64,000 nt of DNA, taken from assembly GCA_963753435.1 (NCBI GenBank), contig CAVWCF010000001.1:1152001-1216000 (forward strand), in the 5' to 3' direction. The notes under the pieces are model-generated. The model saw only the letters and a list, made by a program, of their open reading frames with translations, had not been told where the DNA came from and did no database searches. Made by a program: the position numbers and the translations under genes. Below, piece after piece: positions 13,243 to 61,903 of this stretch (its first letter is position 1; each line of letters starts with the position of its first letter). This DNA comes from an uncultured Actinomycetota bacterium. GTDB taxonomy: Bacteria; Actinomycetota; Actinomycetes; CAVWCF01.

Positions 13243-14142
13243 GTGAACCCCCGGGACGCCAGCCTCTTGGTGCTCCTGGCCGCGATCTTCGGTTCCTCGT
13301 TCCTGTTCATGCGGATCGCCGCGCCCGACGTCGGCCCGTTCATGGTGGCCGGTGTTCGCGTCGGCATCGCCGCTGTCGTACTGCTGGCCGTATTGGTGCT
13401 GCGGCGTGAGGTCGGCCGGCTCAAGGAGCACGCGCGTCCGCTGGCGATTGTCGGGCTGGTGTTCGTCGCCATCCCCTTCACGCTGATCTCCGCCGCCGAA
13501 CTGCACCTGACCGCTTCCCTGGCTTCGGTGCTGAACGCATTGGTCCCCGCCTGGGGAATCGTGGTCGCGGCGATCGCCTACTCCCAGCCGATAACCGCCA
13601 AACGGCTGCTGGGGGCGGCCAGCGGTCTGGTCGGCGTGGCGCTGGCCGTCGGGTTGGGCACCCTGGGGTGGTCCTGGGCGTCCGCGCTCGCGGTCGGGGC
13701 GATGCTGCTGGCGACACTCGGCTACGCGGTCGGCAGCGTCGCGGCGGCGCGACTGCTGTCCGGGGTGCCGCCGCAGGTGACGACGACCGGGTTGATGATC
13801 TCCGCGACCGCTTGGCTGGCGGTGCCGATGGCGCTCACCTGGCCGGACAGCCGACCGGAGACGGACACGATCTGGTCGCTCATCACCCTGGGCGTGCTGT
13901 GCACCGGGTTCGCGTTCGGGATCTTCTTCGTGCTGCTGGCGCGGATCGGGCCGGTGGGTTCGACGTCGGTGACGTTCCTGGCGCCGATCTTCGGGATCCT
14001 GTTCGGGGTTTTGTTCCTGTCGGAGCGGCTGAGCGCGGGCCTGTTCCTGGGCTTGCTGTTCGTGTTGACCGGCGTGGCACTGATCACGGACACCCGGTTG
14101 TCCACACTGCGCCCGACGGCCCGGCCGGGCGTTCCCGGCTAG
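13243..14142 (+). CDS. DMT/EamA family transporter
   Basis: ~10 hydrophobic segments; IFGSSFLFMRIA and LGVLCTGFAFGIFF..IGP...VTFLAP EamA repeat motifs. Confidence 0.88.
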   Translation: MNPRDASLLVLLAAIFGSSFLFMRIAAPDVGPFMVAGVRVGIAAVVLLAVLVLRREVGRLKEHARPLAIVGLVFVAIPFTLISAAELHLTASLASVLNALVPAWGIVVAAIAYSQPITAKRLLGAASGLVGVALAVGLGTLGWSWASALAVGAMLLATLGYAVGSVAAARLLSGVPPQVTTTGLMISATAWLAVPMALTWPDSRPETDTIWSLITLGVLCTGFAFGIFFVLLARIGPVGSTSVTFLAPIFGILFGVLFLSERLSAGLFLGLLFVLTGVALITDTRLSTLRPTARPGVPG

Positions 14143-14185
14143 CGGGAGCGGGTCACCGGCGGCAGGACCGCTTCGATCACCCGCA
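14128..14185. repeat. Left copy of 58-bp direct repeat (duplicated menD 3' end / DMT stop junction)
   Basis: 53/58 identical to 15478-15535; minus strand reads RVIEAVLPPVTRSR* versus menD RVIEAVLPPVTRAR*. Confidence 0.9.
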
Positions 14186-14260
14186 GGCTCGCAACGTTCG
14201 GCAAGCCGAGCCGCGTGAGAGTGCCTCGCAGCGCCTCCGACTGCAACGTTGCGGCGGAAA

Positions 14261-14317
14261 CGCAACATTCGGACCGGATCGCATCCCCTCCGGATGCGAT
14301 TGGGCTACACGGTTGCG
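14261..14317. repeat. 57-bp spaced palindrome, copy 1
   Basis: CGCAAC(14261)-N14-GCATCC(14281)-N5-GGATGC(14292)-N14-GTTGCG(14312). Confidence 0.9.
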
Positions 14318-14355
14318 TTCCGACCCTGGGGATTCACCAAGAAGCGGCCGGACAC

Positions 14356-15330
14356 TCACGCCGCCCGCCGCATCGCCGACCGGATCCGAGCGGCCACCGG
14401 CGCGAAGTCGCGATAGGCCTCATCCCAACCCCACCGGATCACGGTGAACCCCATGGCGCGCAAGTCGTCCTCACGCCGCTTCTCGGCATAAAGCACATCC
14501 GGGTCGTCGTACTTGCTGCGCCCATCGAACTCGCCGATGACGCCGCCGTCCCAAAGGAAGTCGACGCGGTACCGGCCTCGCGGCCCCTTGACCTCCACCT
14601 GCAGTTGCGGCGGTGGCAACCCCGAAGCCGCGATGGCCACCCGGCTCACGCTCTCCCCAGCGCTCTCGGCGAGCGGGCTGGCGAACGCGAAGGTTCGCCG
14701 GATCGCAGCGGCACCCTTGCCAAGCGGCTGGTCGCCCAACGAACTCCGCATAACTCGCTCGTGCAGTTGGTCCTGGCTGACGAGGCCGGCAGCGAGCAAC
14801 CCGTCAACGGTGACCACAGCCGCTCGAAGGTCACCCAGCCGGCTGACGTCGAGCGCTGTTCGCAGCGGGCTGGTCATGCGCACCGGACCATCGCTGACTT
14901 CGTCGTCGGCGAGATCGGCGCGGTGGAGGACTCGATACGGCTGACTGCGCACCCACGTGGGTCTCGTGACGTGTACTGGGCCGCCGTGGTGCAGCACCGG
15001 GACGCCGAGCAGTTCCGCGGCGCTGAAGTGGCTGGCCACCGTCGGGGCTCCGGTCACCAGCGTGACGGCGGCGATCCTGGCTCGGTGCCGCTCACCTAGG
15101 CCCCAGGCCACCCATTGGTCCGTCCCCACGTAGCCGCCGCGAACAATTGACGTCCAGTCGCCCCGGTCGACGTGCGACCTGACCTCCTTGGCGGTGAAGC
15201 CCACTGACATGGCCTGGCCGGCCGTAAACGCACCGAACTGCTGGGCGGCGATACCTGCGAGTAAGGGATCCACGCGCGCAGGCTGCCGCTGACGTGGGCT
15301 GAACGTTTCGGCCATCCACAGTCGCCGCAC
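14356..15330 (-). CDS. AbiEi-like N-terminal HTH plus C-terminal DUF559/VSR-like PD-(D/E)xK nuclease-domain protein
   Basis: IAAQQFGAFTAGQA..RGGY (AbiEi_4-like), ASHFSAAELLG, TSPLRTALD, AESAGES..GLPPPQLQ..RVDFLW..GEFDG..KY..EKRREDDLRAMGFTVIRW; family recognised by eye. Confidence 0.75.
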   Translation of the reverse strand: MRRLWMAETFSPRQRQPARVDPLLAGIAAQQFGAFTAGQAMSVGFTAKEVRSHVDRGDWTSIVRGGYVGTDQWVAWGLGERHRARIAAVTLVTGAPTVASHFSAAELLGVPVLHHGGPVHVTRPTWVRSQPYRVLHRADLADDEVSDGPVRMTSPLRTALDVSRLGDLRAAVVTVDGLLAAGLVSQDQLHERVMRSSLGDQPLGKGAAAIRRTFAFASPLAESAGESVSRVAIAASGLPPPQLQVEVKGPRGRYRVDFLWDGGVIGEFDGRSKYDDPDVLYAEKRREDDLRAMGFTVIRWGWDEAYRDFAPVAARIRSAMRRAA

Positions 15331-15345
15331 GACTCATGGGCCAAA

Positions 15346-15402
15346 CGCAACATGCGCTCCGAGAAGCATCCGGGCCGGATGCGATCTGGGGCCGCCGTTG
15401 CG
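15346..15402. repeat. 57-bp spaced palindrome, copy 2
   Basis: CGCAAC(15346)-N14-GCATCC(15366)-N5-GGATGC(15377)-N14-GTTGCG(15397); extra GTTGCG at 15416 and 15464. Confidence 0.9.
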
Positions 15403-15477
15403 GGTCAGCGGTGAGGTTGCGAATCGGGGGCCGCGGGTCAGCGGGTGCCGGGTCAGCGGGGAGGTTGCGAGACGGGA

Positions 15478-15535
15478 GGCGTGCCCGGCTAGCGGGCGCG
15501 GGTGACTGGCGGCAGGACCGCTTCGATCACGCGCA
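15478..15535. repeat. Right copy of 58-bp direct repeat (functional menD 3' end)
   Basis: Aligns to 14128-14185 at an offset of exactly 1350 bp. Confidence 0.9.
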
Positions 15536-17132
15536 ATCCGTTGCCCACCGAGTCCGACAGGGCCTTGGCCAGCGACTCCGCGTCAGTCACCGCCGTGTGC
15601 GCCCACCCGGTTGCCGCGCACAGCCCGCCGATGTCGACGCCGTGCGGGGTGCCGAACAGCCGGTCGAACGCCGCCGCGTGCTGCGGTGCGCCCTGCTCCA
15701 GCAGCTTGAACAGCCCGCCGCCGGCGTTGTTGGACACAACCACGACCAGGTCGGGCCTCGGCTCGTCGGGGCCGATCGCCAGGCCGGCGGCGTCGTGCAG
15801 GAACGCCACGTCGCCGACGTAGGCGGCTGCCGGTCCCCCGCCGCGGGCCTGCCAGGACAGGGCCGCGCCGACGGCCGTGGACGTGGTGCCGTCGATCCCG
15901 GCCGCGCCCCGGTTGGCGACGACCGTGACGCCGTCACGCAACTGCGCCCAGGCCAGGTCCCGCACCGGCAGTGACGAGGCCGCCACGAGCAGCGAGCCAG
16001 CCGGCAGTGCAGCCATCACTTCGGTGGCAACGATGCGTCCGTCCCACTCGTCCAGCGAATACCGCTCGGCGCGGGCGGCGTCCGCCTCCCGCCAGGCGTT
16101 CAGCCAGGCGTCGTCGTGCGGGTGGTGGTCGCCGGGGTGCGGCACCGCGGCGTGCACACGCGACGCCAGCCGGGGCGCGTCCGGCCACCAGGGGCTCGGG
16201 GAGGCGATCTCCACGGACACACCGGGTTCGCGCATCAACCGCTGCACCGACCGCCACAGCGTCGGACGGCCCACCACGATGATCCGGTCCGGGCGGTTGG
16301 CCGACAGCCAGCGGTGGTCGTCGATGAGCAGTTGTCCCAGGCGCAGTGCGTTCGGTCCGGTGCGCGCGTTGCCGCACGGTTCGGCGATCACCGGCCAGCC
16401 GCGGCCTTCGGCGAGCAGCACGGCCGCCTGACCCCACGCGGGCGGGCAGTCGCCGACGACGACCAGGGTGCGTTCGGGCCGCGGGTCGACCGCCGGGGGT
16501 TCGGCGATCGGCGCGGAGTCCACGACCGTCCAGCGGGCGCCGCCGTCGCGGCCGTCCAAGGATTCGATCCAGTCGCCGGAGTCCGGCACCAACGGCTCGC
16601 GGAACGGCAGGTTCAGGTGCACCGGCCCGGGGTCCAGGGTGCGAGTGCCGCGCGCGGCCGCCAGGGTCCGGCAGACCAGCGAGCGCCAGTACGCGACCGA
16701 CCCGACGCGCTCCTCCGGCACACCGACCTCGTGGAAGAACCGCACCTCCGAGCCGAACAGCTGCAACTGGTCCACGGTCTGGTTGGCGCCGGCGCTGCGC
16801 AGTTCCGGGGGCCGGTCGGCGGTCATGGCGATGATCGGCACCTCGGCGTAGGAGGCCTCGGTGATGGCCGGGTGCAGGTTGGCCGCAGCGGTGCCGGAGG
16901 TGGTGACGACGGGGACCGGGGTGTCGGACAACTTCGCCAGACCCAGGGCGGTGAAGGCGGCGGCGCGTTCATCCAGGCGCACGTGCAGACGCAGCCGTCC
17001 GGCCTTGTCGGCGTCGTGCAGGGCGTAGGCGATTGGGGCCGAGCGCGACCCCGGCGCGATGACGGCCTCGCGGACCCCGCCGCGGATGAGTTCGTCGACG
17101 AGGACGCGGGCCATGGCGGTGGCTCCGTTCAC
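15489..17132 (-). CDS. menD: SEPHCHC synthase (2-succinyl-5-enolpyruvyl-6-hydroxy-3-cyclohexene-1-carboxylate synthase)
   Basis: APGSRSAP, DERAAAFTALGLAK, TTSGTAAANL, TADRP, ANRGAAGIDG, GDVAFLHD, NNAGGGLF. Confidence 0.96.
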   Translation of the reverse strand: MNGATAMARVLVDELIRGGVREAVIAPGSRSAPIAYALHDADKAGRLRLHVRLDERAAAFTALGLAKLSDTPVPVVTTSGTAAANLHPAITEASYAEVPIIAMTADRPPELRSAGANQTVDQLQLFGSEVRFFHEVGVPEERVGSVAYWRSLVCRTLAAARGTRTLDPGPVHLNLPFREPLVPDSGDWIESLDGRDGGARWTVVDSAPIAEPPAVDPRPERTLVVVGDCPPAWGQAAVLLAEGRGWPVIAEPCGNARTGPNALRLGQLLIDDHRWLSANRPDRIIVVGRPTLWRSVQRLMREPGVSVEIASPSPWWPDAPRLASRVHAAVPHPGDHHPHDDAWLNAWREADAARAERYSLDEWDGRIVATEVMAALPAGSLLVAASSLPVRDLAWAQLRDGVTVVANRGAAGIDGTTSTAVGAALSWQARGGGPAAAYVGDVAFLHDAAGLAIGPDEPRPDLVVVVSNNAGGGLFKLLEQGAPQHAAAFDRLFGTPHGVDIGGLCAATGWAHTAVTDAESLAKALSDSVGNGLRVIEAVLPPVTRAR

Positions 17133-19587: not shown

Positions 19588-19866
19588 ATGGCCAAGACCG
19601 CCCGCCTTGAGGTGCGCCTGACCTCGGAGCTGAAGGCGCAGATCGAATCCCTGGCAGCCGAGCAGGGCGCGACGGCGAGCGACTTCGTTCGATCCGTCAT
19701 CGAGGAGCGGCTGGAGGAGTTGCTACAGCGCTCGCAGCGATACACGTTCGTCTCGCCGGAGTACTTCGACTGGCTGATGCGCTGGCTGGACGAGCCACCG
19801 GAACCCCTGCCGCCGACCATGCGCCGCGCGATGGAACGCTGGCGGCAGAACAACCCCGCCGACTGA
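19588..19866 (+). CDS. DUF1778/RHH antitoxin (TacA/AtaR-like)
   Basis: KTARLEVRLTSELKAQIE..A..G...SDFV..., LDEPPEP..TMRRAM; directly upstream of a GNAT gene. Confidence 0.82.
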   Translation: MAKTARLEVRLTSELKAQIESLAAEQGATASDFVRSVIEERLEELLQRSQRYTFVSPEYFDWLMRWLDEPPEPLPPTMRRAMERWRQNNPAD

Positions 19867-19869
19867 CGG

Positions 19870-20349
19870 GTGGCGACGACCAGTCCGCTGCGTCCCGATT
19901 GCGTGCTGCGGGGCTTCGATTGCGGCGTACCCGACCTGAACACTTGGCTGGTTGCGCATGCCGAAAGATCCGAGCGCGCCCGACAGAGCCGGACGTTCGT
20001 CGCTGAGTCCGGCGGCAGAGTCGTGGGCTACTACGCCCTTGCCGCCCATGCAGTCGCTGCCAGCGACCTCCCTGCTCGGTGGCAGCGAGGGGCGCCGCGA
20101 AGCGTCCCCGCCGTGCTGTTGGCGAAGCTGGCGGTAGACCTCTCAGCGCAGGGCCATGGTCTTGGCGCGGACTTGGTCGTCGATGCGTTTCAGCGAGTCC
20201 TGTCGGCCGCCGAACAGGTCGGTACTCGCGTGCTGGTCGTGGACGCCATCGACGACTCCGCGAAGAACTTCTACTTGCGGCTCGGCTTCGTCCGCACCTC
20301 ATCTTCGCAGCGCCTTATGCAGAAGCTGAGTTGGGCGGCTCAGCGCTAG
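19870..20349 (+). CDS. GNAT-fold toxin (TacT/AtaT-like)
   Basis: FDCGVPDLNTWL, VVGYYAL, VPAVLLAKLAVD..QGHGLGADL, VDAIDDSAKNFY..LGF. Confidence 0.85.
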   Translation: MATTSPLRPDCVLRGFDCGVPDLNTWLVAHAERSERARQSRTFVAESGGRVVGYYALAAHAVAASDLPARWQRGAPRSVPAVLLAKLAVDLSAQGHGLGADLVVDAFQRVLSAAEQVGTRVLVVDAIDDSAKNFYLRLGFVRTSSSQRLMQKLSWAAQR

Positions 20350-20361
20350 GCGACTAGAACA

Positions 20362-20682
20362 TCACCAGACCAGGCCGAGGGCGGCATGCAGGCCCTGCTC
20401 AACGCGGCGCATTGTGTCTCGCGAAACGGCGCCGGCCTCGCCGGTCACCTCGTGTCGGTAGACCACGCCGATCTCGTCACACAAGACCCGGCCCACTAGC
20501 GGGTCGAGTGGACCCAACTCGACGACAGAAGCGAGCGCGGGCTTTCGGCTCGTTGTGATCCGGACCGCGAGGAACGAGTCGAGAGCTCGATTGCGCTGAT
20601 TGCCCGATACGACCAGGAAGGGCTTGATCTCACCGACCTCGGCGATTCGGGCGAAGTAGCACCGCCCCCGAGTGGGGATCAC
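20362..20682 (-). CDS. PemK/MazF family endoribonuclease toxin
   Basis: RGRCY...KPFLVVSGNQRN...VRITT..., G.V...MRRVEQGLHAALGL. Confidence 0.82.
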   Translation of the reverse strand: MIPTRGRCYFARIAEVGEIKPFLVVSGNQRNRALDSFLAVRITTSRKPALASVVELGPLDPLVGRVLCDEIGVVYRHEVTGEAGAVSRDTMRRVEQGLHAALGLVW

Positions 20683-43734: not shown

Positions 43735-43829
43735 CGCAACCTCCCGACCGAACCGCAACATCGCGCCGGAATCGCATCCGGCGCGGATGCAGATCAGGCC
43801 GCCTGTTGCAGAACGGTCCGCAGGTTGCG
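43735..43829. repeat. Spaced palindrome, solo copy 3, with extra outer arms
   Basis: CGCAACCT(43735); core CGCAAC(43754)-N14-GCATCC(43774)-N5-GGATGC(43785)-N14-GTTGCA(43805); AGGTTGCG(43822). Confidence 0.9.
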
Positions 43830-43855
43830 AAACCCAGCCACCAACTTGAATGCGC

Positions 43856-43882
43856 CACTCAGGCGACCTAGTCGTGTGAGTG
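43856..43882. terminator. Possible hairpin after hemB
   Basis: Imperfect stem CACTCA.GCGAC-CTA-GTCG.TGAGTG between convergent stops. Confidence 0.35.
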
Positions 43883-43888
43883 CGGCAG

Positions 43889-44857
43889 TCAGGCCAAACG
43901 GGGGGCCAGCGAAGTGGCCGCGTAGGTGAGGATGAAGGACGCCCCGGCGCGCTTGATGCCGGTCAACGCCTCCAGGTGCGCCCGCTCCCGGTCCAGCCAC
44001 CCGTTGGCGGCAGCCGCCTCGATGGCCGCGTACTCGCCACTGACCTGATACGCCGCCACCGGCACGTCGACCATCTCAGCCACCCGCGTCAGCACATCCA
44101 GATACGGCCCGGCCGGTTTGACCATGACCATGTCCGCGCCCTCGGCCAGGTCCAACGCGACCTCGCGAAGTGCCTCATCGGCGTTGGCCGGATCCATTTG
44201 GTACCCGCGCCGGTCACCGACTGCCGGCGTCGACTCGGCCGCGTCCCGGAACGGCCCGTAGTACGCCGACGCGTACTTGGCCGCGTACGACAAGACCGCC
44301 ACGTCGGCGAAACCGGCTGAGTCCAGCGCCGCCCGGATGGCGGCCACCTGACCGTCCTGCATGCCCGACGGCGCGACGACGTGGGCGCCGGCCTCCGCCT
44401 GGGCCACGGCGACCTGCGCGTAGCGGGCCACGGCCGCGTCGTTGTCCACCGAACCATCGGCCAGTAGCGGCCCGCAGTGCCCGTGCGCGGTGTACTCGCA
44501 CAGGCACACGTCGCCGATCAGTACCGCCGCGTCACCGACCTCGGCTACCAGGTCGCGCAGTGCCGCCTGGGTGATCCCGTCGGGATCGGATGCGGCCGAA
44601 CCGACGTCGTCCTTGTCGGCGGGCACCCCGAACAGGATCAGCCCGCCGACTCCGGCCTCGACCGCGGACGCGGCCGCCTTGCGCAGGGAGTCCCGGGTGT
44701 GCTGGAACACCCCGGGCATCGAGGCGACCTCGACCGGCTCGGTCAGCCCCTCCTTGACGAACAGCGGCAGCACCAGGTCCGCCGGCTGCAGCGTCGTTTC
44801 GGCCACAAGCCGACGCAGCGCCGCGGTGCGACGCAGACGACGTGGCCGCTCGATCAC
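43889..44857 (-). CDS. hemB: Porphobilinogen synthase
   Basis: RPRRLR, DVCLCEYTAHGHCG, SYAAKYASAYYGPFRDA, MVKPA, AYQVSGEY. Confidence 0.97.
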   Translation of the reverse strand: MIERPRRLRRTAALRRLVAETTLQPADLVLPLFVKEGLTEPVEVASMPGVFQHTRDSLRKAAASAVEAGVGGLILFGVPADKDDVGSAASDPDGITQAALRDLVAEVGDAAVLIGDVCLCEYTAHGHCGPLLADGSVDNDAAVARYAQVAVAQAEAGAHVVAPSGMQDGQVAAIRAALDSAGFADVAVLSYAAKYASAYYGPFRDAAESTPAVGDRRGYQMDPANADEALREVALDLAEGADMVMVKPAGPYLDVLTRVAEMVDVPVAAYQVSGEYAAIEAAAANGWLDRERAHLEALTGIKRAGASFILTYAATSLAPRLA

Positions 44858-60883: not shown

Positions 60884-61811
60884 TCAACTACTTGATGCCA
60901 CTGCCCGCAGGAACAACGCCAGGTTCGCGGGTTTCTCAGCCAGGCGCCGGACCAGGTACGCCCACCAGTCTTCACCGTAGGGGACGTAGACCCGCACTCG
61001 CTCCCCCTCGGCGACGAGTCGGCGCTGTTCGTCCGAGCGCACGCCGAAGAGCATCTGGAACTCGTACTCGCCCGGTGCCCGGCCGTGGCGGATGGCCAGG
61101 GCGGCGGCGATGTCGATGAGTCGCGGGTCGTGGGTGGCGATCATCGGGTAGGTGGAACCGCTCAAGAGCAGGTTCAGGCAGCGGACGTAGGCGCGGTCGA
61201 TGTCGCGACGCCGGGTGTACGCGACCGACGCCGGCTCCTCATACGCCCCCTTGCACAGCCGGACCCGAACCCCACGGTCGGACAGATTGCGGCAGTCGCG
61301 TTCGGTCCGGAACAAGGCCGACTGCAGGACCACGCCGGTGTCGGGGAAGTCCGGCCACAGGTCGTTCAAGAGTTCGCAGCGTCGCTTCGGTGGTGGTGTG
61401 GTCTTCCATGTCGACGGTGACGGTGGTCCCCATGCCGGCGGCCTGGGCGCAGATCCGCCGCGCATGCTCGGTGCTGATGGCCGAACCGTCGGGCAAGGCC
61501 TGACCGAGCGCGGAGAGTTTCACCGACACCTCGACGGAGTTGCTCAGACCGGCGCCGGCGATCAGGTCCAGCAGCGACAGGTACGCCTCCGTCGCGGCCT
61601 CGGCCCGGCCGGGGTCGGTGGTGTGCTCACCGAGGTGATCGACGGTTGCGGTCAGCCCGTCGTTGGTGAGTGCGCGCACGGCGACCAGCGCGTCGACGAC
61701 GCTCTCGCCGGCCACGAAGCGCTCAACCACCCCGGCCGTTACCGGGCTGGCCATGACGGCCCGGCGCAGGTCATCGCTGTCCGACATGGCGATCAGGGCG
61801 TGCCGCAGCAT
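60884..61811 (-). CDS. Monofunctional proline dehydrogenase (apparent frameshift near 61375)
   Basis: RFVAGE, DHLGE, SVKLSALG, VDMED / GVVLQS, RLCKGAY, IATHD, EFQMLFG, YVPYG. Confidence 0.9.
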
Positions 61812-61846: not shown

Positions 61847-61903
61847 TGCAACCTGGACGCCCGAACGCATCCGCGGCGGATGCGATTCAGCTGCAGTGTT
61901 GCG
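61847..61903. repeat. 57-bp spaced palindrome, solo copy 4
   Basis: TGCAAC(61847)-N14-GCATCC(61867)-N5-GGATGC(61878)-N14-GTTGCG(61898). Confidence 0.9.

Follow-up and report, generated by a model that had tools for sequence, protein, structure and literature searches.

A nuclease-like gene framed by its own dispersed palindrome in an uncultured actinobacterium: a putative enzyme-plus-repeat partnership

Why does a palindrome of 57 bp stand on both sides of a nuclease-like gene and recur, alone, elsewhere on the same chromosome? We address this question for a locus in a stretch of 64,000 nt (positions 1,152,001 to 1,216,000 of contig CAVWCF010000001.1, hereafter the window) from the genome of an uncultured Actinomycetota bacterium (G000; 2.17 Mb, 98% complete). 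The gene lies on the reverse strand between an EamA/DMT transporter gene and a menD-like gene, and its predicted product joins an AbiEi-like DNA-binding module to a Vsr-like nuclease domain. Gene and palindrome likely form a putative, as yet undescribed enzyme-plus-repeat partnership that would spread short repeats. The specific explanation that we favor, and to which we give an even chance, is a resident partnership of the RAYT kind, in which the gene is framed by its own scattered palindrome and the protein would bind this palindrome as double-stranded DNA and spread it by cutting and host repair. The locus anatomy, the predicted fold, the family-wide pairing of gene and repeat, the dispersal of the repeat and its co-occurrence with the gene are what we observe; that the protein binds and cuts the palindrome and made the solo copies is our proposal.

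The palindrome described in the initial annotation, YGCAAC-N14-GCATCC-N5-GGATGC-N14-GTTGCR, is found exactly at 14261-14317, 15346-15402, 43754-43810 and 61847-61903. These four copies compare with a mean of 0.00 and a maximum of 0 in dinucleotide shuffles of the window (n=100, up to 2 mismatches allowed), a result that refutes a chance origin of the motif. The genome-wide scan that had been called for returned nine copies in G000 (eight full and one partial), two framing the nuclease gene and seven standing alone, and all of them are intergenic as judged by long frames rich in GC at third codon positions. The same pattern was found in none of 40 other genomes, none of which is a congener, and the reversed-pattern control gave 0 in 41 genomes. 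One metagenome contig (L074) also matched. There the motif is a perfect hairpin flanked by convergent genes, the 1063 bases of the contig include no family gene, and the match was set aside as likely chance.

The gene, its palindrome and its promoter

The features are listed below by window position; papers are cited here and throughout for the parts of their text that were available.

13243 to 14142, forward strand: EamA/DMT transporter gene of the host, its last 15 nt inside the left copy of the 58-bp repeat
14128 to 14185, no strand: left EamA/menD junction copy, consisting of the genuine EamA end and a non-coding copy of the menD 3' end
14188 to 14195, forward strand: outermost GCAAC box, CTCGCAAC, present in the sequence and earlier called the left terminal inverted repeat
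14202 to 14237, reverse strand: grpE-like coding piece of 36 nt between the two outer boxes (33/36 to host grpE, E 3e-8)
14242 to 14260, forward strand: extra 19-bp unit, outward of the downstream palindrome
14261 to 14317, no strand: downstream 57-bp palindrome (two 26-bp arms and a 5-bp center)
14356 to 15273, reverse strand: gene for a predicted AbiEi-like DNA-binding module plus Vsr/I-Bth0305I-like nuclease domain (305 aa; longest frame from 15330)
15280 to 15285, reverse strand: candidate -10-like hexamer, 6 nt ahead of the likely leaderless start (CAnnnT consensus of 31 homologue promoters)
15312 to 15320, reverse strand: DnaA-box-like 9-mer, 47 nt ahead of the likely start (consensus from PMC4285127)
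15346 to 15402, no strand: upstream 57-bp palindrome
15403 to 15471, reverse strand: extra 19-bp unit (15403-15421) and outermost box GTTGCGAG (15464-15471, earlier called the right terminal inverted repeat)
15478 to 15535, no strand: right junction copy, consisting of the genuine menD 3' end and a non-coding copy of the EamA end
15489 to 17132, reverse strand: menD-like host gene, a thiamine pyrophosphate enzyme of the menaquinone cluster
43735 to 43829, no strand: solo palindrome with its core at 43754-43810 and a further 19-bp unit on either side, between a lytic transglycosylase-like gene and hemB
61847 to 61903, no strand: solo palindrome, flanked by a proline dehydrogenase-like gene and one that is isomerase-like

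The longest open reading frame of the gene (14356-15330, reverse strand) encodes 324 aa, but the real start is probably the GTG at 15273, giving 305 aa, because of the promoter spacing seen in homologues. Searches with tblastn, phmmer, Pfam DUF559 and a profile of 120 sequences agree on a single family gene in G000. Pfam matches to AbiEi_4 (E 0.004) and DUF559 (E 0.001) both lie slightly below the curated cut-offs, no NCBIfam family matched, and a sequence search of solved structures gave 3hrl (E 0.5) as its sole match. The AlphaFold model (predicted local distance difference test, pLDDT, 94.9) consists of three parts: a winged helix, an AbiEi C-terminal domain and a Vsr-like nuclease domain. 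Model residues 13-213 resemble AbiEi (6y8q; Z 10.4, root-mean-square deviation (rmsd) 5.2, 178 aligned), and Rv2827c is matched with Z 7.6. Residues 217-319 resemble 3hrl (Z 11.9, rmsd 2.6, 89 aligned), I-Bth0305I (3r3p; Z 11.5, rmsd 2.7, 95 aligned) and Vsr (1cw0; Z 9.6, rmsd 2.9, 100 aligned). The transposon nuclease TnsA shares the fold class (Z 6.9), and two structure comparisons of the model gave the same matches. D252, E262 and D264 (319-aa numbering) are invariant in 120/120 homologues.

Model and structure comparison thus back the domain call of the initial annotation (a helix-turn-helix plus a Vsr-type nuclease). Its remark that an AbiEii partner is missing also holds: the neighbors are EamA and menD, and PF08843 was not found in the 98% complete genome. 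A Y1 transposase/RAYT (PF01797) was not found in G000 either, by a search that was positive in 6/14 controls; Ku is present. The best protein hit is 50% identical, and family members are named ‘AbiEi antitoxin’, ‘very-short-patch-repair endonuclease’ or hypothetical protein in the databases.

Across the 16 arms of the full copies, positions 2-6 (GCAAC), 14, 17-18 and 21-26 (GCAYCC) are conserved. The variable spacer letters agree with those of the opposite arm equally well whether both arms come from one copy or from different copies (6.1/14 versus 6.0, permutation p 0.48), and a second family (20 copies in genome G019) likewise has no within-copy spacer pairing (p 0.31). Judged by its letters, the motif seems to behave like a protein site on double-stranded DNA rather than a hairpin, a predicted site that resembles the AbiE operator. 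Single-stranded hairpins are the less likely substrate since the spacers do not pair. A hairpin or RNA reading was rejected on the same lack of covariation, and no Rfam match was found at E up to 1 over 13900-15800. Further GCAAC units follow at most sites, 19-20 bp outward. The 8-mers CTCGCAAC and GTTGCGAG, which had been read as terminal inverted repeats of the unit, are present but are the outermost of these GCAAC units, and occur 24 and 30 times in G000.

Beside the solo copy at 43754 lies a palindrome of another family (TTGAATGCG..., 43846-43893), with two or three further copies in G000 (C1:1586030, 1222833 and a partial one at 1365975). No family gene adjoins this copy, which may have been left behind by a paralogue since lost. 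The unrelated units L012, L013, L066, L090 and L093 have in common that their repeats contain a word like CGACACGCC.

The promoter carries a DnaA-box-like element that is common in the family. At 57/67 loci, TGTGGAY or its reverse stands no more than 150 nt from the 5' end, compared with 1/67 behind the stop codon, 3/188 far windows and 2.4% of random windows; among the loci fetched after the box was first noticed, 15/16 carry it. Most forward boxes (31/37) are placed 45-50 nt ahead of an in-frame start with the CAnnnT hexamer. The box fits the actinobacterial DnaA box consensus, TTGTCCACA (PMC4285127), from which the 9-mer of the window deviates at 3/9 letters, and similar words cluster ahead of dnaA here. 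DnaA is known to work at promoters such as that of nrdAB (PMC8203912), and we infer from the element that DnaA may control the promoter of the gene.

Two further observations concern other genes of the window. A TacA-like antitoxin and GNAT toxin pair, with a PemK/MazF-like gene on the opposite strand, lies at 19588-20682 within the menaquinone gene region. The proline dehydrogenase-like gene (60884-61811) is spread over two overlapping frames, which indicates a frameshift or an assembly error.

Pairing, dispersal and movement across the family

Homologues were found with the single protein in 30/40 other genomes and with the profile in 36/41 (genomes sampled across the class), and a wider scan of genome collections added at least nine distant loci among the matches listed. 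A matching repeat stands on both flanks of the gene at 38/52 loci, scored above the 99th percentile of 2652 mismatched pairs, and at 37 of those 38 the locus's own partner is the best match. The set of 52 includes the locus studied here; L017 may be a chance match in GC-rich DNA, and without the four loci from the unpublished genomes G008 and G032 the count is 34/48. Dropped beforehand were two 5'-truncated loci, two partial ones, a same-species duplicate, a true AbiE pair and a frameless locus. Further gene-bearing loci have their own repeat on both flanks in 14/19 cases (one of them repeating an earlier locus), and another family does so in 20/30. The repeat is thus enriched beside the gene family, as the initial annotation had supposed. 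The true AbiEi-AbiEii pair among the hits (L031) has a long palindrome upstream only.

Three other repeats, followed through their genomes, are dispersed as well. Genome-wide, G007 has 14 copies (3 at the gene), G019 has 26 (2 at the gene) and G005 has 10 (2 at the gene), with 0 in the reversed control; three related copies of the G019 pattern occur in G001 and one in G017, and the exact pattern of the G027 repeat occurs at its gene alone (69% complete genome). Among 121 genomes of the family of G005, the repeat is present in 5/5 that carry an orthologue of at least 65% identity, adjoining the gene each time, and in 6/116 without a close orthologue, so that it is not equally common where the gene is missing. 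No Y1 transposase (RAYT/IS200 enzyme) that could own the repeats was found in G000. Repeats are shared in 10/11 pairs with more than 70% protein identity versus about 3% of 169 pairs with less than 60%, and repeat similarity thus follows protein identity, as co-variation with protein clades predicts. Shared locus ancestry alone would give this correlation too. Up to 12 paralogue hits occur per genome, mostly with different repeats.

At L075 (G005:C15:498483-499659), two G005 repeats stand 1.1 kb apart with an unrelated stretch between them and no family gene, possibly framing other cargo.

Five close orthologues of a relative keep the same downstream neighbor gene across two genera (5/5). The G000 protein matched 0/50,697 phage records and 4/72,556 plasmid records. 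In a quick tree, lineage-specific expansions occupy unrelated sites, many forks being open, and the closest paralogue pair compared in relatives has 76% DNA identity over the gene with unrelated flanks. Read in this way, the tested gene would be stationary on the time scale of a genus and mobile over longer times.

One solo copy is an insert of about 60 bp relative to empty sites in three congeners, with no target duplication seen, and another site holds different repeat families in different species (two sites examined in all). Mapping of 139 flanks to G000 gave 95 with a hit. The site of the solo copy at 43754 is occupied by a full gene-plus-repeat unit in G027, that at 61847 by a full unit in G001 and the menD site by a full unit in G005; the units at all three shared sites carry another repeat. 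The chance that both solo sites of the window hold full units elsewhere is roughly 0.002-0.007 (about 2/18 hand-picked syntenic sites).

Some host sites are occupied by units in more than one family (L004, L007 and L028; L053, L058 and L090; L083 and L091). The host gene at one recurrent site, with units in both orientations behind it, is presumably aldolase-like. In G086, site L193 is occupied by an insert of 1.1 kb that has no relation to the nuclease family.

Junctions at the locus and competing explanations

The 58-bp direct repeat around the unit (14128-14185 and 15478-15535) exists, with 91% identity, but it is not a family-wide target duplication: among 59 loci screened, a duplicated host-gene end is evident at this locus only, and none was seen at the seven solo copies of G000. 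The repeat spans the overlapping stop codons of EamA and menD, and both genes are therefore intact. The two copies differ at five positions, of which four are silent in the affected gene and the fifth exchanges Ala and Ser (post hoc chance of about 0.03); they therefore look like two alleles rather than a decayed duplication. The grpE-like piece differs from host grpE conservatively (as a control, 9/600 random 75-mers had a second hit of any kind). In run X1, a single contig of a related strain carries this left junction, the palindrome and the gene, but with 12 other letters in place of the grpE piece. Junction copy and grpE piece may both stem from the DNA of a relative, taken up as filler when a break was repaired. 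No empty menD/EamA allele was found, and the sequencing runs gave no joint across the unit, with 15212-15479 uncovered in each of them; two same-family genomes have menD, then a different 40-bp palindrome and then menG, with no EamA in the stretch read behind menD.

Several smaller observations touch these junctions. The edge of the duplicated menD segment (15533-15544) lies in a small inverted word, GCAA-N4-TTGC, which is like the outer box; the likeness is weak and such words are common. L023 has a 40-bp direct repeat of 90% identity about 400 nt upstream of the gene and directly behind it; the pair may be either a repeat or a host duplication. The palindrome behind menD in G001 and G002 (L071/L069) is 40 bp long with a fixed middle of 24 nt and occurs elsewhere in both genomes; no partner gene was found near the four exact copies fetched.

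In the resident partnership that we favor, the AbiEi-like module would hold one protein on each 26-bp arm, in the way that AbiEi binds its operator, and more would sit on the outer 19-bp units. The Vsr-like domains would meet and nick or break the DNA in or close to these sites; this activity would be low and, through the DnaA-box-like promoter element, likely coupled to replication. End joining or recombination would mend the break and occasionally place a copy of about 60 bp in another intergenic gap; it would rarely move or duplicate the gene and would sometimes leave filler, of which the junction copy and the grpE piece may be examples. Gene and repeat would then drift jointly, leaving each paralogue with its own sequence.

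A number of points weigh against this explanation. The presumed histidine position of the EDxHD motif, placed by sequence motif, is lysine in 119/120 homologues. Between G000 and X1, the gene differs by 5 synonymous and 6 non-synonymous codons, versus 22 and 2 for menD and EamA (p 0.006; partial lists and shallow contigs), a pattern that seems to fit relaxed or diversifying selection alike, so that the two cannot be told apart. No repeat pair is detectable at 14/52 loci, the co-occurrence is drawn from kin in two genera, and three of the six genomes with the repeat and without a close orthologue keep 4, 5 and 14 copies. The family of G157 has weak within-copy symmetry (20.4 versus 19.75 of 24, p 0.0015; 17 of 21 copies), which would leave room for a hairpin or arm-to-arm copying there. 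Filler capture is based on one locus in one assembly. Finally, 22/36 solo loci examined (out of 46 copies counted) are common to at least two of three congeners and the eight full G000 copies share merely 34-43 of 57 letters; given this slow turnover and divergence, we see no sign of recent copying in G000.

Other explanations fit parts of the same evidence. The gene could be a free-standing homing cassette, whose nuclease would cleave its own intergenic site where the cassette is missing and which is copied in by recombination from a relative; the palindromes would be operators and the solo copies scars of cassette loss between its two repeats. This would agree with a nuclease domain closest to that of a homing endonuclease (PMC3239194), with full units elsewhere at both solo sites of the window, with orthologues that keep one site and with a junction copy that resembles another allele. 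We nevertheless find it doubtful: the units at the shared sites have different repeats and distant proteins, nothing but a plain gap is seen at the empty sites, and the 26 copies of one repeat in G019, where a single gene is framed by it, would require two dozen separate losses. It is unlikely, too, that the protein is a host regulator or chromosome-organizing protein, which would use the palindromes as operators or anchors and its nuclease for repair or not at all, while the solo copies would be a selected regulon or terminators. The palindrome is conserved like an operator, AbiEi proteins are repressors (PMC7319586), the true AbiE pair keeps its palindrome upstream, solo copies are often common to several species and most promoters (57/67 loci) have the DnaA-box-like element. 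Yet most loci also have a downstream copy, solo copies follow the stop codons of housekeeping genes that are unrelated, one genome can hold as many as 12 paralogue hits with mostly different repeats, different repeat families replace each other at one site, and the acidic residues are invariant.

The initial annotation had described a mobile unit with terminal inverted repeats between direct repeats; if it were a transposon, the direct repeat would be a target duplication and the solo copies its miniature inverted-repeat transposable elements (MITEs). The unit is indeed bounded by inverted 8-bp boxes and a direct repeat of 58 bp, paralogues lie at unrelated sites (including the pair with 76% DNA identity) and TnsA shares the fold class. 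That an autonomous transposon is at work is nonetheless very unlikely and is not supported: the duplication is evident at this locus only, the two junction copies differ like alleles under selection, the orthologues tested are stationary, G000 has one copy and the model lacks a strand-transfer domain. A chance repeat or assembly artefact is hardly credible. The DNA is GC-rich and the grpE piece and junction copy are known from one assembly, but shuffles and the reversed-pattern control gave 0, and the left junction, palindrome and gene recur on one contig of the related strain.

Beyond the resident partnership at this locus, we tentatively raise a broader possibility, namely that the family represents a phylum-wide class of intragenomic replicators derived from a toxin-antitoxin module. 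An AbiEi gene with its operator would have lost the toxin and gained a homing-type nuclease and a replication-timed promoter; such units would spread protein-bound, double-stranded palindromes by break and repair without transposase chemistry, capture bits of relatives' DNA and diversify into hundreds of orthogonal protein-site pairs. If the reading holds, it would explain a large set of actinobacterial intergenic palindromes, mean that the design of a repeat with a caretaker enzyme arose twice from unrelated enzymes, and suggest, in a form open to testing, how a toxin-antitoxin operator can turn into a selfish repeat. Because each gene adjoins its presumed binding site, the family would offer many natural pairs of a protein and its long DNA site, of use for studying how specificity evolves and possibly as a source of compact (~300 aa) site-specific nucleases.

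Comparison with known systems

Insertion sequences with MITEs and integrative elements that replace the 3' end of a gene have terminal arrays of short binding units and duplicate a gene end, so that neither host gene is broken. The binding-unit arrays at the ends and the duplicated gene end found here are similar, but the unit has no transposase or integrase and other family members show no such duplication.

The homing endonucleases of the EDxHD group (I-Bth0305I; PMC3239194, PMC2677866) share the fold of the catalytic domain and an N-terminal DNA-binding part. I-Bth0305I acts as a dimer over about 60 bp of pseudo-palindromic DNA (PMC3239194), a footprint of the size of the 57-bp motif. The motif of the present family is E-F-D-G-x-x-K-Y, and an AbiEi-like module replaces the NUMODs. 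Unlike those enzymes, the gene is intergenic rather than in an intron, intein or fractured gene, has no phage hit and is framed by its own presumed binding sites. In the portion of PMC3424549 that was available, DUF559 is listed just with Vsr and a homing enzyme.

AbiEi binds two 23-bp inverted repeats 3 bp apart, with one monomer on each (PMC7319586). The antitoxins of AbiE and MenAT systems, AbiEi and Rv2827c (PMC7319586; bioRxiv 10.64898/2026.01.19.700257), have the same two-domain fold as the first ~210 residues of our protein and long inverted half-sites around a short center (23+3+23 there, 26+5+26 here). They differ in that the family studied here has an additional nuclease domain, no nucleotidyltransferase toxin that could be found, and a repeat that also lies downstream and genome-wide.

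Another close parallel is the REPIN-RAYT system (REPtron) of Proteobacteria (bioRxiv 10.1101/2021.07.10.451892, PMC3733652), to which the initial annotation had likened the layout while pointing out that the enzyme is not of the HUH type. Both parts of that remark stand, as palindromes flank the gene and are scattered and the model is AbiEi-like plus Vsr-like, against HUH/Y1 in RAYTs. In both systems, a chromosomal gene is framed by cognate palindromes that are also scattered intergenically, and gene and repeat change together; the RAYT gene is mostly stationary and nearly absent from phages and plasmids, as the present gene may be too. The repeat described here has neither covarying stems nor the GTAG/CGTC tag, many paralogues per genome each have their own repeat (9-26 copies per family), the promoter is DnaA-box-like and the hosts are actinobacteria, a word that does not occur in the main text of PMC3733652. 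We found no paper that links the nuclease gene family to repeats in a literature search in which subscription journals were mostly out of reach. This locus contributes a test of operator against hairpin, sites that are used more than once, orthologues that stay in place and presumed filler DNA at a junction. By analogy, the system would work like REPIN-RAYT without being a member, having no HUH enzyme and no covarying hairpin, and would reach a similar arrangement with an AbiEi-like module and a Vsr-like nuclease domain.

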